A DNA stretch of 61,968 bases, the filler included, from Porpidia crustulata (Eukaryota), in NCBI GenBank assembly GCA_964255105.1. It is 11 parts of 11 records of this genome, joined end to end, with 100 filler letters (N's around TTAATTAATTAA, not from the genome) between each part and the next. Parts side by side here need not be neighbours in the genome. Positions count along the whole stretch, not along the records: positions 16,972 to 22,520 come from CAXUWE010001773.1; 10 more parts are not named here. One strand, given 5' to 3'. Under the pieces are notes generated by a model that saw only the letters and a program-made list of their open reading frames with translations, was not told the origin of the DNA and ran no database searches. This document shows positions 823-45,080 of the stretch, piece after piece. Position 1 is the stretch's first letter, and each line of letters starts with the position of its first letter. Both the position numbers and the translations under genes were made by a program.

Positions 823-3795
823 TCATATCTTTGGGTCTTTACTCTCTTGTCCTGATGAGGCGTACTCTTCAATTTTTGGCACCTCAGCCATCGCACTTCC
901 CTCCCTTGCCAGCTCTTTGACGCCCTCGTCTGTGCCAGCGAATGGTCTTATGTGGTGATGTTGTAGTATCGGACTGCTGCTCGCATGTTTCTCGGCTACC
1001 GAGTGCGATTCCGTCTTTTTCCGGCTCATATAGTCTGAAAGGCTGACCTTCTTCTTGACAGGACTGGGCTGGACATGGTTCAAGGTCGAGGCGGAAAACA
1101 GTGGAGGATAACTATTTGACGTGTGAGTGGGAGTCTGCAGCAATGGTGACCGGGAGACGATTGTGCCAGGAGTAGCGGTGATGGAGGATTCTGAATTTTC
1201 GAGAGGAAGCTGTGGTGCTGATGGAAGTTGGACGCGCAGATCGGCGGAGCGGAATCCATTCATAGGAGACGAAACGCCGGCCAATCTCAGATCAACCGGG
1301 ACTGGTGGTAAATCAGGAGGCCGATTGCCTTCCGCTTCTGGGTGAGCTGGCAATACCAATGCATGGTCTGGAGGGCGAGGCTTCTGCACGGGCAGATCCG
1401 TTGGTAGACTGCCTGGATCCAGGGTTACGCCAAGACCAACATCGTGCATATCGACATCCTCTGAAGGTTCCTGGTCAGTACGGGTGACCAGACTGACAGG
1501 CGAGAGATCCTTCATCTTGACATCAGGAGAAGGTGCTTGGGCGCTAGGAGCAACGTTAAAAGAAGCCGCTTTTCCTCGTTGCTCTAATTTTACCCGATCC
1601 CTTTGACAACGCAACAGCAGACGCTTTGTGAGAGAAATGAAGGGCCTCCTTGGTGTGATATGAGTATCTGCGGACTTATACCAATCATCATTCTCTTCCG
1701 TATCGGTCTGCATTGAGGAGTCAACATAATTCTGTCGAATAAGAGGCGAAGCTGTTGAAGGGGTATTCGGTTGCGATGATCGTTTATTGTGTCCGTGGAG
1801 AACATTTGGGGGGCCAGAGGAATGCGAGTTTTGAGCGACAGAAGAACCTGTTGTAGTCTGGGACGCGCCAGCAATCATGTAATGCGGCCCGGAAGAAATG
1901 CTCGGAGTGTTTGGCTGTGAGATTACTATGTGGCCCAACTGTTTGCTGGTGCCAACAGAGGGCGTGTTTAAATTGGAGCCACCACTGTTCCGCTTCTTCT
2001 TTTTCTGGGCTGGCTGATGCTTGTCCTGCTCCAGATTCTCGAAAGTCTTCTCGAGCGCGGCAATCTTCCTCTTCTCGCGCACCGAAAGTTCCTGCCCAAG
2101 TGCAATACCATGAGGAGTTATCTCCCTGCTCCGTGGCTTGCTGCGTACGGAACTAGAGGTAGATCGGTTGTCGTCGCGGTCATCGTCTTCTCGCTGCTTC
2201 ATGCCTTCACTTGCTGCTCTGCTATTCGTGGCCTGGCCAGTGCTAGGGGGCGATGTCTTATTGGCGTGACCGTTATGACCCTTCCTTGATACGCCGTTCG
2301 ATACATGGGGAACGGAGCCAGTGCCCGAAGTCCCATAATGTCGATCGTATCTAGCCAGTGCACATTGACTCGGATCGTCGCATGCGCAGCCACCGAAGTC
2401 TGCCAGGACTTTACCTACCCAGTCAATGGCATAGTCTTCACCCGCGTCGGCAGCGCCCTCACGCTTGACCTCCTCATTATTTCGACTATGGACAAAGTTC
2501 CTCATGTGCTCGTCCAAAACCCAGCCTATTGTCAGTTCAGATCCTGCTTCTAAATCGGTCTTCGTGATGAAGCAAAAGTGGTAATCTCCTTCTTCTAATA
2601 TCGTCTTCATGCTGAGATTGGGACGACAACTTCTTCGCAGATATCGAGAGGTTGTGCCTTCGGACCGAGTATCAATGTAGATCGGTAATTTCGGATGAAA
2701 GAAGACAAAAGGGACAGGATGTCGAAGATAGTCCCATCTATTCAACGGGTCCTCAATGTAATCCTTCATGTGGCCAACCTTGCCTTTCAGCTCACCCACT
2801 ATTGAATCCTGAGGAATGAAAGAGTCAATGGTAAGGAAAATCCACTGAGGCTGTTGGCCATGACGATCTGTGGATGGATGTGGCTTGTGTTGTTTGCGGA
2901 GTTGCGGGAGTGTCATCGAATCGAGAGGTTGTTCGCATCGGTGAAAGACTTCTCCTGGTAGCAATCCGTTGGTTGCTTCACGTAGTGATTGGGTATCATG
3001 AGACCACGACGAAAGGCTCCTGGTAATCGTAATGTCATTAAAAAGGTTCGCTTGGAGAGGGGTATCGCCGGGATCGTCATCATAAAGATGTAAGAATTCG
3101 GAGCTAAATGGTTCACTAGAGTACCCGTTTGGTGAATGGCTCGAGGGCATTTTAGGAGGACTCTGAGCGGGATGCGACGCGCATCCAGAACGTTTGGTGT
3201 ACTGCGTGGAGGGCCCAAGCGGGGTCATTGGAGAATTGACGGAGCTGGAGAGGCGATGACTCGTTTTCGGTCTCTTAGGGTGTGCCAGTTGATCTCGTGG
3301 GCTCCGGCTGGTACGGTCGTGGACAAAGGCAAGATCGTTCTTTTCATAAGGCCAGCCATTCGTGAATGTGACGTGTGAATCTACTACCTTGAGCTTTTTC
3401 TTATGGCTTTTTGTCGTCGTTTTCTTGATCTTCCTCTCGCCTGGATCAGGCTGCTCCATTCTCCGACTCTGTCGCTCGGTTGCGCCCTTCGCATCGAGTG
3501 GCCTGGGCTCACAGTCGGTGCAGAAATGAGTGATCTCTCGAACGTCGAGTACCATTCCATTGGCGTAGTAGTAGCATTCAATGTGCTGCCAAGTCTCGCA
3601 TCGCTCACACAGCACGGTGTTCCCATCATCTTCATTGAAGCGACAGATACATTTGATCGTGTAATCCTCTTCATCTTCCGTGACTGGCACTGCGTGCTTC
3701 GACACATGAGCAGCCTTGGCAAAGGTAGGAAGAGAGCCGTTGCCGTTAACCTCAGGCGCCGTGAGCGTGTTGGAAGATAGAGAGATATCTGTCAT
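823..3795 (-). CDS. SET3: PHD-finger + SET-domain chromatin protein (Set3/Set4-like)
   Basis: 990-aa ORF with PHD finger (IKCIC...CERCETWQHIECY...CTDC) and degenerate SET domain (GELKG...IDTR..G..SRYLRRSCRPN...ELTIGW), followed by a low-complexity tail. Confidence 0.88.
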   Translation of the reverse strand: MTDISLSSNTLTAPEVNGNGSLPTFAKAAHVSKHAVPVTEDEEDYTIKCICRFNEDDGNTVLCERCETWQHIECYYYANGMVLDVREITHFCTDCEPRPLDAKGATERQSRRMEQPDPGERKIKKTTTKSHKKKLKVVDSHVTFTNGWPYEKNDLAFVHDRTSRSPRDQLAHPKRPKTSHRLSSSVNSPMTPLGPSTQYTKRSGCASHPAQSPPKMPSSHSPNGYSSEPFSSEFLHLYDDDPGDTPLQANLFNDITITRSLSSWSHDTQSLREATNGLLPGEVFHRCEQPLDSMTLPQLRKQHKPHPSTDRHGQQPQWIFLTIDSFIPQDSIVGELKGKVGHMKDYIEDPLNRWDYLRHPVPFVFFHPKLPIYIDTRSEGTTSRYLRRSCRPNLSMKTILEEGDYHFCFITKTDLEAGSELTIGWVLDEHMRNFVHSRNNEEVKREGAADAGEDYAIDWVGKVLADFGGCACDDPSQCALARYDRHYGTSGTGSVPHVSNGVSRKGHNGHANKTSPPSTGQATNSRAASEGMKQREDDDRDDNRSTSSSVRSKPRSREITPHGIALGQELSVREKRKIAALEKTFENLEQDKHQPAQKKKKRNSGGSNLNTPSVGTSKQLGHIVISQPNTPSISSGPHYMIAGASQTTTGSSVAQNSHSSGPPNVLHGHNKRSSQPNTPSTASPLIRQNYVDSSMQTDTEENDDWYKSADTHITPRRPFISLTKRLLLRCQRDRVKLEQRGKAASFNVAPSAQAPSPDVKMKDLSPVSLVTRTDQEPSEDVDMHDVGLGVTLDPGSLPTDLPVQKPRPPDHALVLPAHPEAEGNRPPDLPPVPVDLRLAGVSSPMNGFRSADLRVQLPSAPQLPLENSESSITATPGTIVSRSPLLQTPTHTSNSYPPLFSASTLNHVQPSPVKKKVSLSDYMSRKKTESHSVAEKHASSSPILQHHHIRPFAGTDEGVKELAREGSAMAEVPKIEEYASSGQESKDPKI

Positions 3796-10105: not shown

Positions 10106-11219
10106 ATGTCTAATCTAATGGTTCCTCGAGCACTCACGAATGCATTGCGACAAGTTGGTCGTTCACGACCCCGCGCCCACATACTGCGAGGAGTCTCGAG
10201 TCGCGCTGCACCTTCCAAGCATCCAAGAGGATTCGTCGCTCCAACCGATGATGACCTGGCAGAATTGAGAGAGCGTGTCCAAGATTTTACTCGTAAGGAA
10301 TACGAGAGAGATGTGCTGGCTACATGATCGAATGGAGCTGATACCTTCTTAGGGAGAGAAATTCCTGAGGAACTTGCCACGAAGACAGATCGAGAGAACG
10401 AGTTTCCGAACGGGATGTGGAAGAAGTTTGGAGATGCGGGGTAGCTTACATATGGACGCCTCGAGATTAGAGAAGTTGACGCATGGTAGGTTTCTGGGCA
10501 TCACGGCAGACGAAGATTATGGGGGGCTGGCTATGGGTTACCAAGCCCACTGTATAGTCATGGAAGAGATCAGTCGCGCCTCAGGTTAGCACTGTCGACT
10601 ATACAATAAACAAAAATATCAATACTTACTGTCTCAGGGAGTATCGGTCTTTCCTACGCTGCTCATTCACAACTCTGCATAAACCAACTTTCCCTGAATG
10701 GCACCAATGCGCAGAAAGAGGGTTTCTTACCCTCTCTTATATCAGGCGAAAGTATTGGTGCTCTAGCCATGTCAGAGCACTCTGCCGGTTCCGACGTGGT
10801 CAGCATGAAGACCACCGCAAAAGCTGTAGATGGCGGCTACCTCCTCAATGGCACAAAAATGTGGATTACAAATGTACAAATCCCACCCCCCATTTCCACT
10901 TCAGTTCCAATGACTGACCTCTTACTGCCGCGAATAGGGCCCAGACGCACACACCGTGATTGTATACGCCAAGACCGAGCCCGATAAAGGCTCCAAAGGC
11001 ATCACTGCCTTTATTGTCCCCTCCTCAACCCAAGGATTCTCCTGCGCGCGCAAACTCGACAAACTCGGCATGCGCGGCTCCAACACCGGCGAACTCATCT
11101 TTGAAAATGTCTTCGTACCACAGGAGAACGTCCTGGGCGCCGTAAACCACGGCGTCAAAGTCCTCATGGAAGGGTTAGACATCGAGCGCCTAGTCCTCAG
11201 CGCCGGACCCCTAGGGTAC
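10106..11219 (+). CDS. ivdA: Isovaleryl-CoA dehydrogenase, mitochondrial (3' truncated by contig end)
   Basis: [85 protein letters not shown] across 5 exons. Confidence 0.93.
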
Positions 11220-11324
11220 NNNNNNNNNNNNNNNNNNNNNNNNNNNNNNNNNNNNNNNNNNNNTTAATTAATTAANNNNNNNNNNNNNNNNNNNNNNNNN
11301 NNNNNNNNNNNNNNNNNNNGGGTT

Positions 11325-11377
11325 TGGGGTGTGCACGGGACCGGAACGTGCACGGGCCCGGGAATACTCCTATCTAT
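11325..11377. repeat. 53-bp dispersed repeat at contig start, copy 2
   Basis: Identical to 5667-5719. Confidence 0.85.
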
Positions 11378-12035
11378 CTAGCATCTGTCGCCGACCATTC
11401 TCGCTATCAAATCTTCAGGAGGATTATTGACCTGGCGCTCCCGCTCCCGCCCTCCAATCGGCTGGGTTACAACTCAAAGGTGCACTAGCATACTCTAAAC
11501 AGTCACAAGTAACATCCACCAAACTTTAGCTGCACCTCGAGGCATCTAATAGAAAAAGGAATTCGAGATCGTCTTGGCCGCTCACAAGAAGAGATGTACA
11601 TCCTATGATATTTGAGGTGAAGAAGCGAGGCCCGACCAATACCGAGCATCTGGACCAATCAGGTAGAGTTGGAGGTCCCAACCCCCTCACCTTATTTCAG
11701 TCATTCACTTCCGATCTCTGCAATGCATCTTTGTAATTCACGGAGCTGCACCCCAAGAGTGAAGCCACCTATCAAAGAAGATGTTCAGAGGGAAGGCATG
11801 ATGTCTGGTGGCATCCGTCCTGCAAGACACAACCATACCGAGCGCACCCCCTCTTGCTTAACGTACTCTCGACGACGGGAACACTACGGTCCATGATTAT
11901 ATGAAGCATTCATGTCCTTCCTCATTTTCTAAAGTCCTTCGTAATCTACAATCTCCTTTCAAGTGAGAGCTAAGACATTCCAATTCAGGATTCAAGCAAT
12001 ACATCCATCAATTAAAGTCTTTGATATCTTCGAAC

Positions 12036-13097
12036 ATGTGTCGTTGGTTTGCATACATCTCACCTGAGGAGCCTTGTCTCCTCTCGGACGTACTCATCAA
12101 CCCTGCCAATGCCGTCTCAAAGCAATGCTCCGAGCACTACCTTCCTCAACTACTTCCTCATGGGGAAGAGCATGAGCTCGACGATTCCCAGGACAAGCTC
12201 CTGAAGATGCGCAACAGCCTGCTGAATATGGACGGGTTGGGGATAGCCTGGTATACGTCCGCTGCGAGGGACTATGTCAAGAGCGTAGACGGTCCAAGAC
12301 CCGCTCTCTACAAATCCCAATCTCCTCCCATCAATGACTTCAATTTTCGGAGTCTCTGCGGTAATACCGAGACTCATTGTCTGTTCGCCCATATCCGTGC
12401 GACCAGTGGCAGTGTAGTCACGCAGGTCAACAGTCACCCCTTCGTCTTTGGCTGTCATGTCTTCATGCACAACGGCGCCATCTCCAATTTCTTGGACGTC
12501 CGCCGCGATATGACCAATCTGATGAGTTACGACGCATATTGCAACGTTCTGGGAAGCACTGATTCCGAGCACGCCGCCGCACTTTACATGACCAATCTTA
12601 CTGCAGGAGGTACAAAAGACGCGTGGGAGAAACAGTATCCCATTTCCGAGATGCTTAACGCGATGATCAAGTCTGTGGTGCAAATTATGGAGCTCCAACG
12701 AAAACACCTTGGTGAGAAAGCCGCGCCCAACAGCCTTAACTTCTGCACAACAGACGGCAAGAAGATGGTCGCCATTCGCTTCCGGAACCATTCAACACAG
12801 CAGCCTCCAAGTCTGTATTGGAGCGAATTCGCCGGGAGGACTCTAAACCAAAAATACCCGGACCACCCGGACGGAGCTCAATTCGAGAACAAGGAGGCTA
12901 CCAAGGACAAAGAAGACAAAATCGGCAAGCATACCATTATTTCGAGCGAACCAACAACCTACGATGAAACGGAGTGGCACTTGATTACTCGTAATTGTGC
13001 CCTTACGGTAGATGAGTTTGGCACTGAGACGGAGGTCCCGATCAAATATGATGAGGCGTTAAACGCAGTTGATCCGAATGCTCCATTAAGGTCATAG
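12036..13097 (+). CDS. Class II (Ntn) glutamine amidotransferase, Dug3/EgtC-like
   Basis: Starts MCRWFAY (N-terminal nucleophile Cys); NMDGLGIAWY, FAHIRAT, NSHPF, FMHNG, GSTDSEH, ISSEP motifs; intronless. Confidence 0.88.
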   Translation: MCRWFAYISPEEPCLLSDVLINPANAVSKQCSEHYLPQLLPHGEEHELDDSQDKLLKMRNSLLNMDGLGIAWYTSAARDYVKSVDGPRPALYKSQSPPINDFNFRSLCGNTETHCLFAHIRATSGSVVTQVNSHPFVFGCHVFMHNGAISNFLDVRRDMTNLMSYDAYCNVLGSTDSEHAAALYMTNLTAGGTKDAWEKQYPISEMLNAMIKSVVQIMELQRKHLGEKAAPNSLNFCTTDGKKMVAIRFRNHSTQQPPSLYWSEFAGRTLNQKYPDHPDGAQFENKEATKDKEDKIGKHTIISSEPTTYDETEWHLITRNCALTVDEFGTETEVPIKYDEALNAVDPNAPLRS

Positions 13098-13742
13098 CCT
13101 GACGTCTGTGACCTTTTCGTAGGAAGAGATTCCTCCTTTTATCAATCCGGGACACGGACGTGCTTTTTTGCAAGTCACTCCTTCAAAAGCTTGCTTACAC
13201 GCATTTCCTGGTATTGGTCTCATCATTACGCTTCTTAAAACTCTTACTGCAATTTAGCAGGCCAGTTGAAGCTTAAAGACCAGCCATGTAAACATGTCTA
13301 CCTTCGTTAGCTATTAATCAATACTGCAAGTGCAATTTCCAGGCTCCCGAGTGCACATGAATGACCCAGAAACACTTCACCCGTTGAAAATAATCCCCAA
13401 GCAGTCTTCACATCACTCCTTACAGCCCAGCGATACCTACGATTGATAGCTACGTAATTTCCCTGAGGCGTACGAGCTTTGCCTATAAGGGTTTTATAGC
13501 TACCTAAGCAGAGCCAAAAACAAGACTAGATCAACCATGTAGGGTGCAAGGTTTTTCGGGGCTACTACGCTATCGTGATATGCTGTAAGTGATGTGTTAA
13601 TGCTGAAAGGGAATTAGTTCGAACAAGATATGGTAGGGGAGGCTGTGGATGGAAAGGTGGAACGCGGTGTATGTGACTATTGACATTCTCTGTCGCTCTG
13701 GCGTAGGGGTTAGGTATTATGAGTCGTAAGTGGTCCTTCAGT

Positions 13743-14073: not shown

Positions 14074-16871
14074 ATGTCGAGACATAAGCTTGTGAAGGCC
14101 ATGAATTGGCACGATGAATTAGATGATTTTGATGGAGGTAATGACCATGATTATGATCTAAGTAATGGAACTGGAGAACGTATGCTAGTAAACATTTCAA
14201 TGCCAATGCAGTCAAGCTGATTTAATACAGAACTCAGCAGCGAGGATCAACGTAATCAGTGATCCCTATGGGAGGAACGTTCAACAGCCTTACTGATCCA
14301 TTATTCAGAACAATTGCAGGAAGGTACTGCCAAAGTACGGAGCGTCCTAGGCTTCGAAGAATCATTTACCGACAAGGACATTCAAGATTCTTTGTGGCAT
14401 TATTATTACGATATAGAAAAGACAGTCAATTATTTGTTGAGTGTGTACCAAGTTACCTCAAATACTACGAATTTCGGCTAACAGCTCTTAGATCAGAATG
14501 ATCCTCAATCAAAAACGTCGAAGAAGAAGAAAAAGCAGCCAGAAGCGATGGAAGTTAACGGTAAGCATTACGCTTTCTTTGAATTTCATCAACATTTCTT
14601 TTCCAGACTGTCGATGCATGATACCAGACCAAGAACTGGGACGTCTTCTGTTGGTATGTCTCAATCACTAGACTTCAAAAATTGATTCTAATTCACGCTG
14701 CGTTTAGATCTACTACAATTCATGAAACCAATCCCACACTGCGCCATGTTCTCAGCTGCGGAATTCTTCAAAGACTCGCCATGGCTACAGATTCCCCAAA
14801 ACCGCCGTGGCGAGATTCTTGTAGAGCCACTCTATCCCAAGGGCGGTCTACTGGGTGGATCTTCCTCCACAAGTGGTCCGAAAGTCTCGAAGCTAGCTGC
14901 CCTAGCTGCTGCGCGCAAGAAAAAGGAGAACAATCATCCTAGTAGTGGTGGATCTCAGAGCTTGACAAGCTCTGTAGCACTTCTTGACAGACTTGGCGGG
15001 AGAACGAGCGCTACGAAGACCAGTGACGAAAGCACATCGAAATCAAAGGTTTCAAGCTCAATTGATGCAAAGCCTGAGCCATCTGCAAAGCTGAGAGATC
15101 GAGAATATCCTACGCGAAGGCGTGACAGCTCAAGCCAGTCAGCCCTAGCGAAGACTACTGTCAGCGATGTTCAGCCTTCTGAGAATATCTCGGTTAAGCC
15201 TGAGGTCTCAATGGTCGACATTACTATACCAACTGCTTCTCCTTCGGATTTTGCCAAAACCATGTTTCGGCCTTCCGAGAAATCCCGTAGCGAATTCTTT
15301 CTTTCCGAGTCATCAACGTTTTCTATACCTTTTGACTATGCGTCGAGTACTGAATCAAATCCTTTTGCAGGCCCAAGCCCAGACGACGTTGTTATCAAAG
15401 CACAGACTTCGAAAGGTTCGACCCGAAAGAATAGGGAGGTCTGATCTCGACAATAGGCGACTAATAGATACCAGGCACTAAGGCTACTCAAGTGCAGGGA
15501 CAATCGACGAACAACAAGGCCCTGCATGAGGTTGAACAAGAGCTCAATAAAGTGAAGATTGATGATACGCCAAAAGCAAAGAGCAAGAAACTGAATGTCA
15601 TTGCTGAATATGAGAAATCCAAGGTGAAGAATGCTGCAAATTTTGTGGTTATTGGTACTATACTGGAGTCTATTTCTTAAACGAGAAAATGTTTACATTC
15701 TCAGGTCACGTCGATGCTGGAAAAAGCACTCTCATGGGCCGTCTACTGTACGACCTCAAAGTTGTTGACCAGAGGACTATGGACGGATACCGAAAGGAAG
15801 CCGAAAGGATTGGTAAATCTTCTTTTGCACTTGCTTGGATCCTTGATGAAGGCACCGAAGAACGAAGCCGGGGCGTGACAATGGACACCGCAATGAACCA
15901 ATTCGAAACCGACACAACAAGCTTCACCATCCTCGACGCTCCTGGCCACAAGGACTTTATCCCCAACATGATCGCTGGCGCCAGTCAGGCCGACTTTGCC
16001 GTTCTCGTCATCGACGCCAGTACCGGAAGCTTCGAATCTGGCCTCAAAGGCCAAACCAAAGAACACGCGCTTCTAGTCCGTAGCATGGGCATTCAACGCA
16101 TCATCATTGCGGTCAATAAATTCGACACCGTCCAATGGTCCGAAGATCGCTTCACGGAAATCTCTCAGCAAGTTTCCTCCTTCCTCACAGCCGCTGGCTT
16201 CCTTCTAAAAAATCTTGTCTTCGTCCCTTGCTCCGGCCTCACGGGTGATAACGTCATACGCCCCATCACCGACTCCTTGGCGTCATGGTACAAAGGCTCT
16301 CCACTAATCAACCATCTCGAATCCTCCGAACTCATCGCCCGCGCCTTCGAGAAACCCCTCCGCCTCACGATTGCCGACATCTTCAGCGACGACTTCCACC
16401 ACCCCCTATCCATCTCCGGCCGCCTCGACGCCGGCAGCGTCCAAATCGGCGACATCGTCCTCGTGATGCCCGCCCGCGAGACCGCGTCCATCCGCGCCCT
16501 CGACGTCGACGACAAACCCAGCGATTGGGCCGTCGCCGGCCAAAACGTGACCCTGCACCTCTCGGACATCGAGTCCAAGCACCTCCACGCCGGCGATGTC
16601 CTCTGTCTCCCCTCGTCCCCCATCGCCACCGCCACCACCCTGACCGTCAAAACCCTCGCCTTCGACCACCTGCTCCCGATGTTCCTCGAAGTCCACCGCG
16701 GGCGCTTGCACGTGCCCGGGCGCATCACGAAGCTGGTGGCCGTGTTAGACAAGGGAAGCGGAGCTGTGATTGGCAATGGGAGGAAGAAAGTCAGGATCGT
16801 GAAGCCGGGGGAGGTGGCTAGGGTGGTGGTTGAGGTGGAGGAGGCGGTGCCGTTGGAGGCGGGGCAGAGGG
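14074..16871 (+). CDS. HBS1: Hbs1/Ski7 translational GTPase (3' truncated)
   Basis: HBS1 N-domain DSLWHYYYDIEKTVNYLL; Ski7-type segment (FFKDSPW, SKLAALAAARKKKE, PSDFA, FAGPSPDDVV); G-domain GHVDAGKSTLMG, ERSRGVT, DAPGHKDF, NKFD. Confidence 0.93.
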
Positions 16872-17178
16872 NNNNNNNNNNNNNNNNNNNNNNNNNNNNN
16901 NNNNNNNNNNNNNNNTTAATTAATTAANNNNNNNNNNNNNNNNNNNNNNNNNNNNNNNNNNNNNNNNNNNNCCCCTCCTTCCACCCTTTCCCGCCTTCAC
17001 TTTGTTCCCACCGTTCCTTCCCGCGATCCTCGGTCCTGTATCTTTGGTAATGCGCGAGAAGGTCGGCAGGTAACAGTAGTACAGGAATAAGAAGGGTAAA
17101 AAGCCAAGACAATTGGCCGCGAAAGCTTTTTGGTTGAGGTGGCATTAAGTCACTTTTCCGAGGGCTAGACGAATGTCA

Positions 17179-18459
17179 TAAGTCCTGATCAAGGTAGAAA
17201 GGGAAACCGATATGATTGCAACAGGATTGCAGAAAACGATTTCTGGCCGGCCTGCGTTTCGCCTATACTATCGCTTACAAAAGCTACAGGACCAGCTCTG
17301 GGACGGCAAACCTCTTGATGTCCGTCGTTCTATGTTCGGCCGCTTGGAAGAAACAATGCGAAGCAAGGAAACCCTTACACAGTCTCAAAGGGCTTTGGAG
17401 TCGATTCCTAGCGCCGATGGGAATACAGATTTATCGTCGAGCGAACGGTTTTGCAGGCGATTTGCATATCTGGCAACAATGAAAAATGTCGCTTCTGCTA
17501 TGGTGCGTCAAGATAGTCAAGCGCAAAACCTTTATTTGGACAGAGAAACCATCAAAGGTCCGTTTTCCGATATAGGACCTCACGCAATCGGCACCTTCGA
17601 GCCCAAGTGCGAGCTTGTCCTCATTGAATTTATAAACTACGGAGAGTCGTGAAATTCTCGTGAGAACGAGCTACCTGAACGCATCAAGGCAATAGCATTC
17701 TTACGCAGTAAGGACGTCTCCGAGTCCATCTTTCCCATTCTGCGATGCCGCGGCTACTACCAAGAGTCCACACGGACTCGATTCGGCATCGTATACCAGC
17801 TACCCACCGAAGCCCAGAACACGTTGCCCATGAGCTTACCAAAGGTGTTAAAGGAGACAAAGTCTAGAACTCTACAACCTTCGCTTACGCGTCGCTACAA
17901 ACTAGCATCCGCCCTAGTCTCCCACGTCTTGAGCTTTCACCGTGGCGGCTGGTTGCACAGAAGCATATCCGCATTCAACATCATTTGTTTTCCGGAGGCT
18001 TTTCCGAGCATCGCAGCCTCTCTTGCTAGACCATATTTTATTGGGTTCAACCGCAGCCGTGTGAACGACAATAACGAATACTCTTCGCAGCCCGAAATGG
18101 AGTACCAGCATCCCGTGTACCAAAGAAACACCCAAGCCTACACGGATGACACGACAAATCCGATTGTGCGTTTTCGTCAGGAATTCGACTACTATAGCGT
18201 CGGCTTGGTGCTCATGGAAGTCGCGTTCTGGAAGCCTTTGAATTCGATGATGGGAACTTCTACAGCATCACCTGAGGAGATGTTAGCGAAGTTTCGAGAC
18301 AAATGTATACCAGTAATGAGGACATACATGGGAGACGCGTATTGTGATGCGGTACATTATTGTCTCACTGCCTATGAGGAGGGACAGCATTCACCCGAGA
18401 ATGTTCGAGATGGTTTTAACGAGAAGGTCGTTCTGCCCATCTCAAGATGTTTAGTGTAG
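17179..18459 (+). pseudogene. Fungal kinase-like domain gene of the type often fused to HeLo/prion-inhibition domains; disrupted
   Basis: ILRCRGYY...RFGIVYQLP...RYKLASALVSHVLSFHRGGWLHRSISAFNII...YQHPVYQ...FRQEFDYYSVGLVLMEVAFWKPL; ORFs 17212 and 17824 share a frame separated by TGA at 17650-17652; further in-frame TAA at 17179. Confidence 0.75.
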
Positions 18460-18672
18460 CTTCGTCGGAGCAATTTGAACTTTCAAATTGGCCTTTAGAA
18501 AGAATGTCAGGGTGCAGAAGTGGGCGAGGGGCGAAATTCATTCCGTCACGCTACATCATGAAGGGGGGACGATCAAAATGCGACTAACGCAATCGACTTT
18601 CAAGTCTACAAAGAGCCCTATAGAAGAGATCCCATGCTCTCCTGTCAAGTCCAGCTTTATTTTTCAGACGAT

Positions 18673-20862
18673 TCAATGAAGGAGCCTTTGCCCGTATAAA
18701 GGCCGATATTTACGCCAACCCAACGCTGAAGCAAGCGTGACGCTAACGAAAATAATTGCCAGCAGAGGAAACTTCCAGAAATCCGACACCAACACCATAT
18801 ATGTGTTTCCACCTCCTGACGATTTTTCAATCTGCACTAAGTTAGAACCAAATATTGTCCGTATCGGCAGTCAGCACCTATTCAGAGACTTATCTGATGA
18901 CAGCCAACTTACAGCAGTTAAAGATGCAGGTGGTAGAGAAGAGCCAAAAAGGTAAGTATCTTAATGAATTTCGAATCATTGCGCATCTCTCTTGTCAAAA
19001 CCGTCGTCAAGTCGCCCGCAGTCGCCGTTTGCTTAGTGAGCTGTCTGATTTGATGGCCATTGTTGCGAATAGCTACATTTGTTGTCAAACTTATCTCTTC
19101 ATGTTGATACTCTAGCATGTGGAATAGCTGGCGTTGGTAAGCTGCGAGCAACCTTGTTCGGCGTGAAACGTGTAAAATACCAGTTTGCTAGTCCCACTCA
19201 GTCTCTCCAGCAGAGAATTCACGATTCTTACATGCATTTCGAGATTAGCAGTATACTGATCGAACGCCTCGCGACTGTTTAGAATCTCACTTTGTTGCAA
19301 GGCTCGAGTAATTTTTTCTATCTGCATGTTCAACGATCTTCCGACATCCGCATTTGATGCTAGAATCAGCGAGGCTTTTAAGAGCTTCCGCCGAACAAGT
19401 TCTAGAACTTGAGCATCACGGAATGTAACAGTATAGTCGAGCCTACAGGCTGTAACGGTTGTTCTAATAAAAACACAAGATATAAACAGAGATAGACTAG
19501 AGTAACGAACTCCTTGCTACTATAGACTGAGGTCTGCAGATAGCTTAGACAATAGAACTGATTGTATTGACTATTACATGAGTTGAGCACGAAGCTCCTA
19601 TCTAAAGGAATGACTCTCATTATATAGACATAGGAGAATCGTGCTAAAAGCCTGTGCTCAATATGCTCAGTGGGGTGAGTCCACTGAGCAACTGGTCTTG
19701 CTCAGTGCGCTCACCTTGGTGAGCAAAGTGAGCTACTCTGCTCAGCACGCTCAGTGCCATGAGCAAGGTGAGCAGTCTTAGGCCTACACCTGTCGGGCGT
19801 AGCCTACATACTGGGCGGGGTTCCCGCCTGGGGCTAACACAGGCGCTTCCGACTCTAGGATTCAACGCCTTCTCATCCTAATGCACCGGTACATTAGCGA
19901 GCTCAAGCGCCTCTAGCTTTCCAAATAATTTATGTACGATCTCCAATTTGCTGCAAAGACCGACACGAATAAGGCGTGCAGATCCAGGTGCTCAGAACGT
20001 GCAAGATCTTTGTTTTCTACACTATGCATAAAGTTCTGAATTTGAGACTCCATGCTTTCTGATGGTTGTATGATGATCCATAAGGAGCTTTGATCGCCCA
20101 AGTCAAAGCTATGATACAGGGCTATTTGTCTTTCTGACCAGATCGCCTTGATACCTGAAGGGTTGTGCTTCTCAAAGTAGCGAATATTATAGCACAATTC
20201 AGATCTCCCGGCGCTACATTTATATTAACAGATGGTCAGCATCTACAACAATATTTCAGAGAGAACTACATGACCCTTGTACTAGAGTCTGACGACAGTT
20301 TGCTCTTCAGGCTAACAATGTTCTCTTCCTTTGACTCGAACTTGATTCCAAACGCACACACGAGGTCCCAGAATGGGGTGAAAATTTGACAAGCTCGCAT
20401 TAGATGTTCGAAAGCTTGATGACTGAGTTAAATGAAGTCCTAAGAGTCCCGTTGACGAAGAACGCTGCATTCATGTAACTTGTTGATCAACAAATTCGTA
20501 GATCCATGTGGCGGCTATGGTGCCCGTAAATAAATGATAATTGTTCTTCGCTTATGATCTATTGTTTCTTGTCAGCTCCGTTTTCCGATTTATGAGCTTT
20601 TAATAGGATCAACCATACAGATAGACCCTCTTCTAACTCCTGTGCATTACTGTACATACTCTTATAGATCCTATTCGTGGTATTCGTAAGCAGTCTTTTT
20701 CAATCTGTACATCTTCCCCAAAATTTACCTTGGCTCTAGCCGCCGGAGCGAGAGTTTCTCGACTAGCATCTTAGTGGGATGGAAGAGCCGCCGCATCTCG
20801 ATATCGCTAGGTACTGACCGACTGTCGGCGTCCAGGAGTCTATTTACAATAAAGCTGGCCAT
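18673..20862 (-). pseudogene. Fungal CorA-like membrane protein, disrupted (start approximate)
   Basis: Exon fragments IFTPFWDLVCAFGIK, CYNIRYFEKH...WSERQIALYH...LWIIIQP...LDLH...NWRSYINYLES, DSKFIKILTFLALLY/PASLTA, TIFGSNLV...FWKFPLLAII; broken by a solo LTR, a 1-bp frameshift near 18930, stops and damaged splice sites. Confidence 0.75.
19451..19839 (-). mobile_element. Solo LTR (389 bp) of an LTR retrotransposon
   Basis: TGTAAC...CTAACA ends; perfect 5-bp target duplication CAGGC (19446-19450, 19840-19844); removal restores host frame NPRVGSAC-RLDYTVTF; TATATAA on minus strand near 19620. Confidence 0.9.
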
Positions 20863-21344
20863 GCTTTGCCGTGCTCGAGCAGGTTTTACAGGCTTACTAG
20901 ATCACAAGGCTACATTCCCTGGTCAGTAGCTACGAGATCGGTTGCCCGGGCAGGAGAGCTGTTCGTGATGCCATGATAACTGCGTCTCGAGGATTATTTC
21001 TGAGTGCCCTGGCCATGCACGAGTAGGCAAAATTCTCTCTATACTGAAGATGGGTTTTCTGAGGTAAGGTTTGAAATTCAGATACGGTGAAGTGGCCTTT
21101 GGCGATAGATAGTGACTCAGCAGCTACAGAATGTGGAGCTTTCAGCGAGGCTGAAAATCCTTAAAAACAACCGCTGCCACGTCGAGATCGCTTTAATCTT
21201 CAGTTTGCACAAGTATTGAAGGATAATTTTATGGGGAATCAATCTTTCCGTCAGAAACAAGCCACTTGTTCTATCTACGAAGTCTCAATAAGACGCCAAA
21301 TCTCCACCAAGCTTCCACAATCGCGACACATCAATGTACATTGC

Positions 21345-21651
21345 TTAGGGTTCCCTCTTAACACTTTGTATCTCCGCCTTGAGCGAAGTCAACGCCGACC
21401 TTAACGAATGAGACTTTAGTGCGAGAAAGAACTTACCTCGGTGAGCTTCCTTGAGATATTACGAAGTGTTACCGTGGGTTCTATGTTGTTCTCTTTAATC
21501 TGCACGACAAGTTAATACGCTAGAGTAGCAGAGGGAGCTGAAGTAATGCTTACCTCCCACTCATAATCAATACCGGAGAACAAAGTCTTCAAAGGTTGTC
21601 CAGCTTTCGTTTGTCAAGGTACCGAATCACGATTGTTTGCACGACCGGCAT
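21345..21651 (-). pseudogene. 3-exon ~64-aa microprotein gene with a 1-bp frameshift
   Basis: Exons 21651-21554, 21499-21437, 21377-21345; donors GTAAGC and GTAAGT; reconstructed MPVVQTIVIRYLDKRKLDNL(L)KTLFSGIDYEWE-IKENNIEPTVTLRNISRKLTE-AEIQSVKREP*. Confidence 0.65.
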
Positions 21652-22469
21652 TGCAAAAGGATGCTTGTCGGTAGCAATGTTGTGTGGTGTCTTATCTCGA
21701 TCTCAAAGAAAATTCTGTAGAGCCTTATTCGAGGGCGACCGGCTTGATATCGACAGAGAGTCCCAACCTGTTAAATTCGGACCCGTAGCACCGTGCAAAC
21801 CTTGTCCCTCTTCAGGCACCAACGAGGATGGCTGAGGACAATGACTGGGAGTTAAGAAGCGACGACTTACGTTGCCCATGCGTAGAGCACATTAATGTAT
21901 AAGTGCTGATGGAATAACTCGAGAGATTGGCATTCTTTGTACTGATGTAACGAGCGAATCCAGTAGGCAGCACCCATATGCAGCACTGCCCACTTACCGC
22001 TCACGTACACGGCACCTACAACGAATCAGATGTCTGAAGTCGTCAAAGTGCAGAAATGTAGAGGCTTGTGAAAAAGTTACACTGGTCAAAAGCCTTGTGA
22101 AGAGTGGATTGGGGAGGCAGCCCGCGATTTGGAAGTTTTATCGAGCTATCTATGCCTGGGCGCTGCGTTGCTACTAGAGTACGCTTTGAGCTTAAGAAGA
22201 TGCCTTGCTCCGATAAACATCAAGGGCAGGAAGCTATCTCCATAGATAGTTCGCGTTCAGGATGCCTTTCTGAAAGCCTTACCTTTGTGTCACATACCTT
22301 AGGCATAGCCTTTTAGCCACATTGATGCCTATTCAGCGGAGCAGAGCTTTTGGGCGAAAGATTCGAGCTCATCCGCGTTAAATTTGGTCTAGGAAGGATT
22401 TGGTTGGTGGAGGTGCATCCACGTACCTTAGTAGAGGATATTGAACCTGTAAGTTAGTCTAATCTACTA

Positions 22470-22520
22470 CTCGTATTCACCCCTAGTTCGATTACACCCC
22501 TAGTTCGAAAACCCTAAGCA
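22470..22520. repeat. Probable transposon terminus at contig end with subterminal tandem repeat
   Basis: CACCCCTAGTTCGA at 22478-22491 and 22495-22508, preceded by TA; contig breaks immediately after. Confidence 0.45.
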
Positions 22521-23355
22521 NNNNNNNNNNNNNNNNNNNNNNNNNNNNNNNNNNNNNNNNNNNNTTAATTAATTAANNNNNNNNNNNNNNNNNNNNNNNN
22601 NNNNNNNNNNNNNNNNNNNNCCCATCCCCCCCGGACGAGTTAAACGAGTGTGATTGTGCTTGGAAAGGGAATACATTGATGAGAAGACGAAGAAATGGCT
22701 AGACCGGTGCATCTGGGGATAACGAGGGGACCGCACCGGGCAATTGAATGTGTTGACAGTCGTACAAGTAAACAGACAGTGTGGATGGGAAGCGAAGGAA
22801 TACTGCCGGACCCTTCTCCAGGCATGTAAAAGGTAGCGGAGCGACTAAACCCCGTCTGTCCTAGTAGTAGTAACGTCGTTGGTCATCCGAAGTGATTTTG
22901 CTAATGAGCCACTCCCAGAACAATAACGGGATTGATTCGTGACGCTTGATTTTGATACTCTAAGCGTGAGCGAATGATACTAAGAGGCTTGTAGAAAGAT
23001 AGGGCGGGCTAGCTAGAGGTTTTTTCTTTTTTTTGGTGACTGAGATTGCCACTCCGAGGATCAATGAGAGGAACATAGCCGCGGCGATGAGAGTCGGTTG
23101 GCGAACCGTTGGGAGTGGTGCTGAGGCGTCGGAGAGAGTGTTATGGTAGGTAGAAAATAGGGACTAATTATTGAATATGAGGCAACGACGGACATGAGAA
23201 TGTCGGATAGGAATAAACGTCAAGTATGGAAGGTGTCAGGCGTCGTGAACTGGGAAGAAACACAATAAGGGGAACTTGGGATCAAACCCGGAGATGAAGT
23301 CGATCGGTGATGGTAGCCTCTAATGCATACTGTGCACAGGATGGCTTCGTCCAGA

Positions 23356-26175
23356 CTAAGCATAGAGCGCTCCTTCTTTCGGAGAAGTAACGTCTTTGTC
23401 CGTGGTAAAGGAGCAGTGTCCGACGCCGTTGTCATCGTATCCCACAATACCCCACTCGACGGGGAAAAGGTGAGCCTCTTTGTCTTCCTCCGGGCGGTGA
23501 CAGGCAGCGCTGATCGCTGCGCTGCAGGTGGAAGCCATGGGTATTCCCTTGGGATATTTCGATATAAGAGCGGTGAGTATAATCGCAACGGTCACGACTC
23601 CACTAAGTGCTTGAGCTTCAAGCCAGGTATGTCCGTTAGCGAGATCACAAAGATGAATCGATATTTCGAGCAAGACCTACAGGCAATGACGGCGATAGGG
23701 CTGAATGCGACGGCTGAGATCGAACTTTCTGTGTCTCTACTTCCGTCCCAGTTGTAGGCTGCGATACGAATTACAAAAATGCTCTGTGATAGCGTCCAGT
23801 GGAGGACTACCATGGAGAGCATAAGTGGTATCCCATACCTTAGGGGAATCGAGACGAAGTAGGTGGATCTTTGTATTCCTTCTGGGGAGGTAACACGAAG
23901 CGTTTTTCTTTTCTTTGCGAATCCAGCCCATTCATTGCCGACAAGGAGATAAGATATAAAGGCATTGGAGGTCAGATAAAGTAACGAAACACCGAATTGC
24001 CATGAGTTGACAAAGATGATGTTGGAGTAAAGTGCTTCCGTTCCCTGATTATTGTTAGCTTTGATGCCATGCGTACCCCGAATGCCATTTAATGCTAACT
24101 GTTGCTTGAGGTAAGAGACCATTAAGTGAAATCCACAATCTATTGTTAAGACGGCCAAATCCCAGACGGATAAGAGATTTAATGTCTGTGTGTAGGTGCA
24201 TCTGCTTGCAAGCCCGGATAGCAAGACAGACAAAAATAGTCAAATCTACGAACGAGATGATGGATCTACTTAATATTAGATTAGAGTATGCCACAATGTC
24301 AAGTGAGAGCCTTGCGATACATACAACAGTAAATTAGATATCCATCTCCTCAAGCTCAGTGTACGAAACCATCGTACCTTTTCTGGTTGCCACATTCGCG
24401 GATGACGATCTTTCCAACATCCAATATCTCTCTTGATCTCTAATTTGGATATAAGACACATCTTTACTGTGGTTGGATCCGGTGTAATCAGGAACGATGC
24501 AATGGCATCGCCAAGCACAGATAGCGGTGGATCGTTATGTCTTTTGTAGTAAAATAGTGTGTAGACAATGCAAAGGAGTTTGACGAAGTTGAAAATGCAA
24601 ACCACTGAGACCGTGTAAGCAGATTTCTACAACAACCACCCTTCGAGTTTATATCGGCGAGGAAGAAATTAACATACTGATCATGATAGTCAGCGAATAC
24701 TCGACGTCGCATAAATCTTCCGTCGATCTATGGGCTTGAAGACAGTAATCTATCTTATAGCCACCGACGTTCCAGTTTCCTATGGCTTGCTTCCGATTTG
24801 TCTCTCTTTCATTGTCGCTGCTGCCCGCAAAATCTGCCAAGTCTAGCGCACTACAGCTGAAATTGTTCGAGGTCCCACACATCCAAGGGAAGGCGTGTTT
24901 GATTATTCGAACATCGTTTACTCCAGCAATGAGAAGTGAACTGTTGCTGCTATTGACTTCTGAAGAAACCATAATAAGATTTGATTGGTTTCCTGATATA
25001 CTCGAGTCTTGCTGCAAGCAAGTAATTTTATCGATCCTGGTAAATTTCGTTCCGTTAATGGCGTCTTCTTGCAGGATCGGTATACCTGACGGTATAGGTA
25101 TTGTGCTTAGTACCCAAGAAAGGTCCTGCCGAACCAATGTCGAGTCTTGATCGTTGAACAAGCCCCAGACCGTTGTGTTTGCAACTGTGGCCAGTGTTGC
25201 CTCAGTGGCGTTTGCACTCCAGTAGCCCCCAGACAGAAACTGAGGAGTAACGACAGCCCAGAGATAGGTATTGAAAGGTAACGATGGAAATACTGCAGCG
25301 TTATACCTGTTAAGATTGGTCTTGTTAACTAGAATAGCTACAGATGCTCATTAGACTGACTTACACAAAGTGTAAGGGCATAGAAGAGAGGCCCAAGATA
25401 AACCAGACCATCAGGCGAGCCTGACTTATGCTTCGGAGATTTCGCACACTGGGTACTCCTATATCAAGCCATCGAAATCTTTCGTGAGCTCTATCGATTT
25501 CCTTGCGGGTCGGTGCTGCAAGAAGTTGCATAAAAAGATTTGAAGAGCTTAGTAGCAAGGTGCTAAGGACGTTGATTAGGAGGTGCACCCATAGGCTAAT
25601 AGTTTGGGTTCTTATACAACTTCCCTGGTAAATGGTTCCAATTCCATCTTTAGAACCGTATCTGGTTTCTAGAGTAATGGTGCCGGCAAGGTTGAAGAGG
25701 AAGACAATTCCCGCGACTATTGAGCAAGCCAAGAGTGTTATGTCTCTTCGCGAGCGCCATGTTCTAAAAGTGCGCGCTTGAGGATGCGTTGGATCTGATT
25801 TGGGGAACCACGAGCGGAGCGACGCCGACGTTGCATAGCGCTCTTTCGTGTCGTCTTGCCGTGATATTTGTGGATCCGTTGATATATTGGTGATCTCTTC
25901 AGTGTCTATTATTTCATCAGGAGCCATAGAGACATCGGAAGTACCATTCGACTGAGCTGCAAAGACTTGCAAATTCGTCGATGGTGATTGACTCCATCTG
26001 CTTTATTCAGTAATCTTATGTCAAGACTCAAACCTGGTGAAGCATACATGGAAGACTGATATATTTCACCATCATTTGTAGTTAGACTGGGTTGCGGATT
26101 CGGGCCATGCACATCGCCCTGCAGCAGAGGTACCGCTGGAGAGCAGTGCTCTTGCTCGTCGCCACGATGTGTCAT
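23356..26175 (-). CDS. DUF6536 family multi-pass membrane protein (multi-exon)
   Basis: VHLLINVLSTLLLSSSNLFMQLLAAPTRKEIDRAH...WLDIGVPSVRNL; PLSVLGDAIASFL; KTLRVTSPEGIQRSTYFVSIPLRYG; STCSAAISAACH; the junctions checked have in-phase GT-AG introns. Confidence 0.85.
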
Positions 26176-43363: not shown

Positions 43364-45080
43364 ATGCCTTACCTACCTATAGATGACTCGGTATTTCTGA
43401 AGGGCAACCACCTAGTTGAGCGAATAAAGATACCGATGAATACCAGTAGCCCGCCTGGGCTGATTGCAGCCAGTAAACAGGATCCGTGGTCTCAATCTGG
43501 GAATTACGCACTCGGCTGGGTGTACTTTTCGGTTATCTTACTAGTGATAACATGCTGTATCCATTGGTATCATTGGGGGACGGATAGAATACGAAGGGCA
43601 ACACACAAGGAAGAGGTGGCCAAATCATCGAAAGATTCATCGCCTGATAGCGATTATGAAATGGCAAATCTGCCCACGGCGAGCTCAACCCGAAAGTTCT
43701 TTCCAGGAAGCGGTGAACTACCTAAAGAGTCGGCGGAGGATGCATCGGTCATGTCCTTTTCGCCATTGAACAAGGCAGTAGCTGCTATGCGATTTATTAC
43801 CTACCGACCTCTGCCAGTCCTACGGTTCTGGAAGCTATCCGTTGCTTTTCCTTCCGTGGGAGTCGTGGCAATTGTTTCTGCGGCCGTCGTCTTTGTGACG
43901 CTTTATTGTTTCATTCCACAGCCGTTGTACTACGCCAGTATCGCCTTTGGATCTCCACCAGTAGCGATCCGAGCCGGGATGCTTGCTGTTGCCTTGATGC
44001 CATGGATTGTTGCCCTGAGTATGAAAGCGAACCTGGTGACTATGCTTACAGGAATCGGGCACGAGCGGCTCAACGTTCTACATAGATGGGGTGGCTATCT
44101 ATGCCTTTCCTTGAGTTTGATACATACGATACCGTTCTATATCACTCCAACCTGGGACCAAGGGGGCCTTGCGGTATTCAAAAGCTTCTTCACAGGTCAA
44201 TACTATATATACGGCACCGGCATTGCCGCTCTGGTACCGCTGATCTTCCTCTGCATACATTCTCTACCATTTCTGCGATCCTGGATGTACGAGCTCTTCG
44301 TCGCAGTGCATGTCCCAGTTTCGATCATTTTTCTCGGGATGATGTTCTGGCATTGCCATAATTACCTAACCTCATGGAATTATCTCTTCGCTACTGCAGC
44401 GATATGGTTCCTGTCTTATTGTGTTCGGTTGTTCTACCTCAATTGGACTAACCCGAGGCGATTCTCATGGCTCATCGGCGAGGAGTCGGCAGTCACCATT
44501 CTTCCGGAGAATGCCATCAAGGTCACCATCCCAACTCAAGTCAAGTGGAGGCCTGGGCAATATGTGTACTTGAGGATGCCAGGAATCTCCGTATTCGAAA
44601 ATCATCCGTTTACTATAGCATCTCTATGCAGCGACGATTTTCCGTCTGAATATAGTGAACAGTACCGAGATATGACTTTGGTCTTTCGACCATTTGGTGG
44701 CTTCACCAAGAAAGTACTCAATGCTGCCATCGACGACGGTCCGATGAAGACCTACCGAGCCTTCATTGACGGTCCCTACGGCGGTATGCAGCGCGACCTT
44801 GCATCCTTTGACACCGTCATCCTATTTGCCGGCGGCAGTGGTATTACCGCCATCGTCTCGCAGCTCCTCGACCTCATTAAGAAGATGCGCGACGGCAAGG
44901 CCGTCACCAAGCAAGTCCACGTCGTTTGGGCTCTCAAACGCCCCGAAACCATGGAATGGTTCAAAGAAGAACTTCGCATCTGCCGCGAGTTCGCCCCCTT
45001 GGAGACAGTTCACTGCCAATTCTTCATCACCGCCGCCAAACGTACCCTCCCTGGCGCCAACCACCCCCCTCCGTCTCCCT
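43364..45080 (+). CDS. Ferric/cupric reductase transmembrane component, FRE family (3' truncated)
   Basis: GHERLNVLHRWGG and further haem His residues; WRPGQYVYL, ENHPFTIAS (FAD); IDGPYGG, LFAGGSGIT (NADPH). Confidence 0.92.

Follow-up and report, generated by a model that had tools for sequence, protein, structure and literature searches.

We observed that one contig of Porpidia crustulata carries the remains of three genes that belong together at many other fungal loci. The DNA analysed here (the window, 61,968 nucleotides) is a chain of contigs of about 5.6 kb joined by N-TTAATTAATTAA-N linkers, and the genuine neighbourhood of the three genes is positions 16972-22521 (contig C1773) alone. 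The genes are a kinase/HeLo-like/pseudokinase gene (K), a microprotein gene (m) and a CorA-like gene (C); a repeat-bearing kinase gene (S) accompanies them at part of the related loci. We have very little doubt that the locus derives from a gene module that occurs across Pezizomycotina, and that this copy was pseudogenised recently. The predicted domains and the gene linkage suggest that this is probably a kinase-triggered cell-death or non-self module, which would end in a CorA-fold channel.

Three pseudogenes on one contig

The original prediction had placed a kinase-like gene convergent with a CorA-like gene on this contig, with a tiny three-exon gene about 480 bp upstream of the latter on the same strand, and had reported lesions in each. 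All three were confirmed as pseudogenes, and m ends 482 bp ahead of the ATG of C. The features are:

17179-18459 (+): K pseudogene, 3' part, comprising the second half of the HeLo-like domain and the pseudokinase; TAA at 17179, TGA at 17650
18673-19450 (-): C pseudogene, 3' part, comprising the remainder of exon 6 and exons 7-8; 1-bp deletion near 18932, acceptor AG>GG near 18860
19451-19839 (no strand): solo long terminal repeat (LTR), 389 bp, TG..CA, splitting C; 5-bp target duplication CAGGC at 19446-19450 and 19840-19844
19845-20862 (-): C pseudogene, 5' part, comprising exons 1-5 and the start of exon 6; stops TAG at 20442 and TAA at 20430, donor GT>TT at 20529, about 33 nt deleted across the exon-5 donor near 19924
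21345-21651 (-): m pseudogene, three exons (21651-21554, 21499-21437, 21377-21345); 1-bp deletion near 21593

The K homology (17182-18459, +) is a pair of open reading frames (ORFs), 65% identical to residues 207-641 of protein P0001. The convergent arrangement stood as predicted. The gene is not whole, as only the HeLo-like part and the pseudokinase, the last 430 residues or so, are left. The 5' part, about 55% of the gene (approximately residues 1-540 of the 972-aa homologue P0185, active kinase included), is absent from the contig and was not recovered in the assembly with P0009 and P0185 as queries. Since the assembly comprises 22.9 Mb in 2,447 contigs, this does not establish that the 5' part is absent from the genome, and the same holds for S.

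C spans 20862-18673 (-) in eight exons, as aligned to its unbroken orthologue at the metagenome locus L039. Exon 7 encodes the first membrane helix, and exon 8 the second, with FGSN in the position of the GMN motif. Exon 5 is 74% identical to EPUS_09491, and the same figure was obtained with P0026, a protein with a precomputed PF26616 match. The stops, 1-bp frameshifts and LTR insertion listed earlier were all present; the list had missed the three splice-site lesions of C. The LTR belongs to a family with at least 36 matches in the assembly, the copy at the locus included. Two other full copies (L002 and L003) share 93-94% identity, and a separate 5-bp duplication flanks each of them. The TpA/ApT ratio of the solo LTR is 1.45, a hint of repeat-induced point mutation (RIP).

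Logan contigs matched 16972-19501 and 19810-22495 with 0 differences, which argues against an assembler error; they come from one run, probably the source data, so that this support is not independent. No RNA run is listed for this DNA in the Logan run search, in which one run matched.

We compared the locus with two metagenome loci, L039 and L040, in which K, C and m are arranged as at our locus, with a nucleotide identity of 71-76%. The frames of all three genes are open in L039 (C, 472 aa; m, 63 aa; and K). The ratios of nonsynonymous to synonymous substitution rates (dN/dS) against L039 were 0.28 for C, 0.20 for K and 0.14 for m, indicating that each of the three genes, m included, was a selected protein gene. 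The locus branch carried 41 private changes in K (319 columns), against 32 and 32 on the sister branches, and 37 in C (324 columns), against 40 and 33. As it is not clearly longer than its sisters, the decay must be recent, and a long neutral decay was rejected on these counts. We also rejected RIP as the cause, since the TpA/ApT ratio of K and C (0.77-0.83) matches that of the unbroken orthologue (0.74-0.76). The lesion densities of the three genes do not tell their decay apart in time (chi-square p 0.52), and this counts only weakly in either direction.

Linkage of the module genes across fungal loci

A metagenome scan with a kinase alignment confirmed 238 loci, and the best 80 were analysed. 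These formed 57 clusters at 90% identity, and a cluster was scored positive when any member was positive. CorA-like genes were found by tblastn in 36 of the 80 loci. The m of L039 alone, run against an enumeration of spliced genes, recovered m at E<=0.05 in 26 loci, with no control locus among them; the later m profiles were built from those 26 loci and are to that extent mildly circular.

The K architecture (kinase plus pseudokinase) was present in 35 of the 57 clusters, with C in 23, m in 30 and both in 22. When K clusters with at least 4 kb upstream and at least 3 kb downstream were considered, C and m were both present in 14 of 14. By contrast, neither was seen in any of the 10 control clusters, which lack an N-terminal kinase (at least 3 kb upstream). 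The linkage of K, m and C is thus real, and the synteny of homologues expected by the original prediction was borne out. A shared orientation was not. Six gene orders occur among 22 loci (arrowheads give direction): <C m> K> in 15, K> m> C> in 2, K> <m C> in 2 and three others once each, the order of our locus (K> <C <m) being one of these three. The distance between m and C is at most 1.83 kb in all 22 loci, and that between m and K reaches 6.8 kb. The linkage persists at mean identities of about 30-33%. The parts of the module span what we take to be five classes of Pezizomycotina, counting, gene by gene, the named m proteins of Hyaloscypha, Hypoxylon and Orbilia and the matches to the other genes in Endocarpon, Xylographa and Lasiosphaeria. 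The named proteins closest to the kinase-like and CorA-like genes of the contig come from Endocarpon pusillum, a lichen fungus.

The only two m loci of the P. crustulata assembly lie on contigs C1773 and C388, and its two PF26616-type loci and best two K loci fall on the same two contigs. The second module (L028:4157-9277, on C388) has the order C> <m K>. Its K has a frame break, in-frame stops and a different, unannotated tail that lacks a Pfam match and looks WD40-like by eye. Its m seems to have lost the first donor site, and the 3' exons of its CorA-like gene look open. Three more pseudokinase-type genes lie on contigs C1488, C779 and C1139 (L030, L031 and L032), with no C or m neighbours in the flanks examined; at L030, the other strand shows kinase-like matches as well (about 1600-3400).

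An all-against-all comparison of flanking ORFs from 31 loci yielded one further shared family, present in 15. This is S, another kinase, with a tail of TPR_10/12 or ankyrin repeats. The earlier label of 'sensor kinase' was therefore misassigned: the repeat-bearing kinase is this separate gene, and the gene at the locus is the kinase/HeLo-like/pseudokinase. S was present at 9 of the 14 well-flanked module loci, at 16 of 35 K loci overall and at 5 of 10 control loci. Among 20 S genes with a downstream ORF, together with L076, 13 tails matched TPR, 7 matched ankyrin and 1 (181 aa) gave no match. In L039, S (10612-13411) is divergent from m, and a frame break and a stop interrupt its TPR array, while K, m and C of that locus are open. 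No NACHT or NB-ARC Pfam match was found in P0185 or in the S ORFs scanned, some S exons lying outside the scan. A weak match to the TPR array of the L039 gene (E 8.5e-4) was noted on another contig of the window, at 44471-44632 (+).

The control loci carry a near-full N-terminal HeLo domain before the pseudokinase in 7 of 10 cases, from profile positions 1-12. S occurs at both kinds of loci, and two related arrangements thus exist: S with an MLKL-like protein and neither C nor m, and S (often) with the internal-HeLo kinase, C and m. We also noted S-type kinases 2-5 kb from pseudokinase genes without an N-terminal kinase at L085, L093, L098 and L106 (also L087 and L062). The Pfam HeLo domain is present in L085, L093 and L098, and the S tails are ankyrin or TPR where called.

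The remaining features of the contig are:

17078-17168 (no strand): dispersed repeat fragment directly upstream of the start of the kinase homology; 10 other matches in the assembly at 80-85% identity, query about 106-197
22011-22111 (no strand): conserved non-coding stretch upstream of m, with 72-76% nucleotide identity to L039 and L040; its L039 counterpart lies between m and the divergent S
22468-22520 (no strand): beginning of a repeat into which the contig runs out; in L039, S is found on this side; 13 contigs have loose ends at 22468, and the depth of the last bin is high

Repeats flank the contig on both sides, making it an island. The claim of one functional unit had been based on joint decay; it is supported by synteny instead. 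Elsewhere in the window, 14692-16871 (+), approximately, holds what we take, from motifs, to be an Hbs1-like translation GTPase gene cut by the end of another contig. An open frame of about 354 aa at 12036-13097 (+) presumably resembles class II glutamine amidotransferase, and a multi-exon gene at about 23317-26002 (-) presumably encodes a membrane protein of the DUF6536 type.

Protein anatomy, rival readings and the proposed pathway

We examined the predicted proteins, beginning with C. The Atlas model of P0026 (feature score 0.98) gave a template modelling (TM) score of 0.83 to PF26616 and of 0.59-0.61 to PF01544 clusters; a local Pfam search of C gave no match. A protein search with P0026 returned 3 matches among 8,000 candidates scored, which says little on family size. 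The C exons of the loci encode two hydrophobic helices, in agreement with a CorA fold with two C-terminal membrane helices. The selectivity motif of CorA, GMN, follows the first membrane helix. It was found in none of the 20 motifs called among 22 loci, where SSN (11), SSS (3), STG (2) and others (1 each) take its place, and the two uncalled motifs were read by eye as FSSN and FSSS. The assembly has 10 PF01544 matches, of which four show FGMN or YGMN. With the motif gone from C and GMN-bearing CorA genes elsewhere in the genome, C is probably not of the ordinary Mg2+ transporter type. This outcome favours the original prediction, which a single-copy, conserved CorA-like protein behaving as an ordinary Mg2+ transporter would have refuted.

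The unbroken L039 orthologue of m is a 63-aa protein. A profile of its exon 1 matches 365 protein representatives at E<=0.001, and complete proteins of 54-67 aa make up 13 of 150 listed matches, the named ones coming from Hyaloscypha, Hypoxylon and Orbilia. A confident model (predicted local distance difference test, pLDDT, 86.8) shows a beta-alpha-beta-beta-alpha fold, whose best structural match has Z 5.0. Exon 1 has no consistent Pfam match, m has none in PADLOC, and the best hit among PDB sequences has E 2.6. Foldseek against PDB gave nothing at E<=0.001 for m or for the K middle domain. The Atlas neighbours of m are unnamed Ascomycota clusters (0.77-0.85). The idea that m is a split-off piece of C was rejected, as no profile match to the aligned part was found (probability 0.15%). 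P0132 of Lasiosphaeria miniovina, in which m exon 1 is joined to the K kinase, was read as a merged gene call, that is, adjacency and not fusion. A complex prediction of P0026 (1-335) with m P0067 gave 0.01 and 0.08 (mark 0.34); it was made with no alignments and with partners from different organisms, and was used neither way.

These features bear on the strongest rival reading, a kinase-regulated ion-homeostasis or stress unit in which C carries or exports a cation other than Mg2+, m is a regulatory subunit, and K and S tune the flux without lethal outcome. The predicted CorA fold of C, the weak likeness of the m model to ACT-, PII- and metallochaperone-like folds (Z<=5.0) and the purifying selection on the module genes would all suit it, as would the CorA-family expansion in E. 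pusillum, which a passage of PMC3897900 reads as Mg2+ supply to the alga. However, C lacks GMN in a genome where other CorA genes retain it, a HeLo-like domain, a pseudokinase and a TPR/ankyrin kinase are unexpected in a transport unit, and both copies in P. crustulata are damaged. We consider this reading unlikely.

Full-length K homologues are about 972 aa long and consist of an N-terminal domain, a Pkinase domain (E 1e-26), a HeLo-like bundle and a pseudokinase. The N-terminal kinase has DFG in 35 of 35 clusters and a strict HxD in 21 of 35, with an open frame free of stops in 33 of 35. The C-terminal pseudokinase has HRD in 1 of 25 and DFG in 0 of 25, with Glu or Asp at the assigned beta-3 lysine position in 25 of 25. 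PDB matches establish its kinase fold. In L039 the middle domain scores 25.7 bits over profile positions 28-130, above the HeLo (PF14479) cut-off of 23.2, and a match at E<=0.1 is seen in 11 of 31 K members; the K fragment at our locus alone has no match to PF14479. A model of the domain (pLDDT 79.9) matched MLKL (6UX8) with Z 6.4, a root-mean-square deviation (rmsd) of 3.6 and 103 aligned residues, and HET-S (2WVO) with Z 5.8, rmsd 4.8 and 134 aligned residues. PADLOC matches of P0185 are to generic kinase only.

K itself might then be an MLKL-like executioner, switched on by S or by its own kinase, with C and m as modulators or a parallel output. A HeLo-like domain followed by a pseudokinase is the layout of MLKL, and according to passages of a review (PMC12881547), HeLo-like domains occur in fungi as fusions with kinases or pseudokinases. 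MLKL is among the sequence matches of the pseudokinase (E 0.001-0.003) and among the fold matches of the middle domain, and S also accompanies the N-terminal HeLo-pseudokinases. In MLKL, however, the bundle is N-terminal and no active kinase is in the chain, while in K about 470 residues including the Pkinase domain precede it. The free N-terminal membrane-targeting helix of HeLo was not found either, the domain being internal and its matches starting only at profile position 28 or 34. LIMK and IRAK4 outscore MLKL, and C and m track the K architecture exactly and not the N-terminal HeLo one. We regard this reading as improbable, more so than the ion unit. That the genes are unrelated passengers, linked by descent or in a mobile island and decayed together by chance, is largely refuted and very improbable: the contig is repeat-flanked and K and C identities correlate across 21 loci (Spearman 0.56), as plain co-inheritance predicts, but the linkage outlasts the divergence and the six orders described above and holds in both paralogous loci, and the widely shared flanking ORFs are S or m, other ORFs having joined only 2 loci.

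We therefore return to the cell-death or non-self module, which we think probable. S would detect a non-self or damage signal through its repeats and, much as RIPK3 acts on MLKL, would phosphorylate the pseudokinase of K as a switch. The HeLo bundle of K is probably not attacking the membrane itself, because it lies behind a kinase and its Pfam match begins only at about position 28. Instead, the kinase of K may act on C, or on m bound to C. C would then open as a poorly selective cation pore, and the hyphal compartment would be killed or silenced (death or dormancy). As m stays beside C when K is displaced, its most likely role is that of an accessory subunit or a brake of C. The roles of 'pore-type effector' and 'small regulator' in the original prediction are likewise ones that we infer. 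More tentatively, and somewhat against the odds, these genes may constitute an NLR (NOD-like receptor)-independent immune pathway of filamentous ascomycetes, with a TPR/ankyrin sensor kinase, a kinase/HeLo/pseudokinase relay and a GMN-less CorA-fold pore checked by a 60-residue subunit. It could derive from a simpler pair of a sensor kinase and an MLKL-like protein, with the killing step moved from HeLo to the CorA channel. If true, C would be the first eukaryotic CorA-family death effector.

Several observations weigh against the cell-death or non-self reading. Among the 14 well-flanked loci, S is missing in 5, of which 3 belong to the 9 with flanks of at least 9 kb/7 kb, and it was not found in the P. 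crustulata assembly with two L039 queries. The best K and C matches of E. pusillum lie on different contigs (231,527 and 6,158 bp). Two K-type clusters, L103 and L080, show no C within flanks of about 2 kb upstream and 10 kb downstream, and the control L091 is possibly a K-type gene that lacks partners. The loci were sampled through K, and the direction from C to K was examined in P. crustulata only. The Fisher p of 3e-6 for the linkage overstates independence, because the loci are related by descent. The fold matches of the K middle domain (MLKL, HET-S and plant coiled-coil domains, Z 5.2-6.8) are tied with unrelated helical bundles. Open K frames and purifying selection also fit ordinary signalling.

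Comparison with known systems

The known routes of regulated cell death in fungi run through NLR-amyloid-HeLo, HET, gasdermin and patatin systems. To our knowledge, a kinase-driven fungal route like RIPK3-MLKL has so far been proposed from domain likeness only. No description of the K-m-C(-S) cluster was found in our literature searches, which left most subscription papers and supplements out of reach, and no paper naming PF26616 was found there. In word searches CorA was not named in PMC12881547 (only 'corals'), PMC10197012 or 10.1101/2022.03.16.484565. The cluster looks like an undescribed conserved module of the clustered fungal cell-death or immune kind. Joining it, through S, with the pair of sensor kinase and HeLo-pseudokinase is new here.

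The copy at our locus is dead, and its value is as a pointer to the module and as a case of module loss. The module names a full candidate chain of sensor, relay, effector and small regulator, in four genes of small to medium size, and unbroken copies allow these to be rebuilt in yeast. Two families gain a testable role from it: PF26616, whose members currently carry the annotation of magnesium transporter, and the widespread microprotein family of m, mostly missed by gene callers.

The closest relatives by layout are RIPK3-MLKL, the plant MLKLs and the fungal HeLo kinase fusions, as described in passages of PMC12881547, which share with the module a HeLo/four-helix-bundle type domain followed by a pseudokinase, and a separate active kinase nearby. 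Unlike RIPK3-MLKL, the bundle of K is internal and behind an active kinase, and its gene is constantly accompanied by those of a CorA-fold protein and a microprotein. ANK, TPR and WD40 repeats are sensor domains of fungal NLRs, according to parts of PMC10197012. The fungal clusters of an NLR with a HET-S-type effector, or of gasdermin with a repeat-bearing protease (passages of PMC12881547 and PMC10197012), similarly place a TPR/ankyrin sensor beside a putative membrane effector, with variable order and decaying copies. In the shared genes of our module, by contrast, no NACHT, NB-ARC or protease domain was seen among the ORFs scanned; the signal would run through kinases, and the effector would be CorA-fold.

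With CorA, Mrs2 and Alr1 (PF01544) and with PF26616, C shares the fold, the two C-terminal membrane helices and LYxPA in the first helix, and by precomputed Pfam and Atlas matches it is a PF26616 member. It differs from CorA, Mrs2 and Alr1 in having SSN or similar for GMN and in its fixed linkage to kinase and microprotein genes. A divergent CorA serves as an immune effector in bacteria, as parts of PMC10600005 describe. This CRISPR-associated membrane effector of Bacteroides fragilis resembles the proposed role of C, at the level of the family fold; it is bacterial and SAM-AMP gated according to the same parts. C has no PADLOC match. In Morchella importuna, mimpvic32 is a CorA-like vegetative incompatibility candidate from bulk segregant mapping (PMC8940278, in part). 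It is about 770 aa, carries PF01544 and is a candidate only, and the word 'kinase' is absent from the main text of that paper; by this description it is set apart from C.

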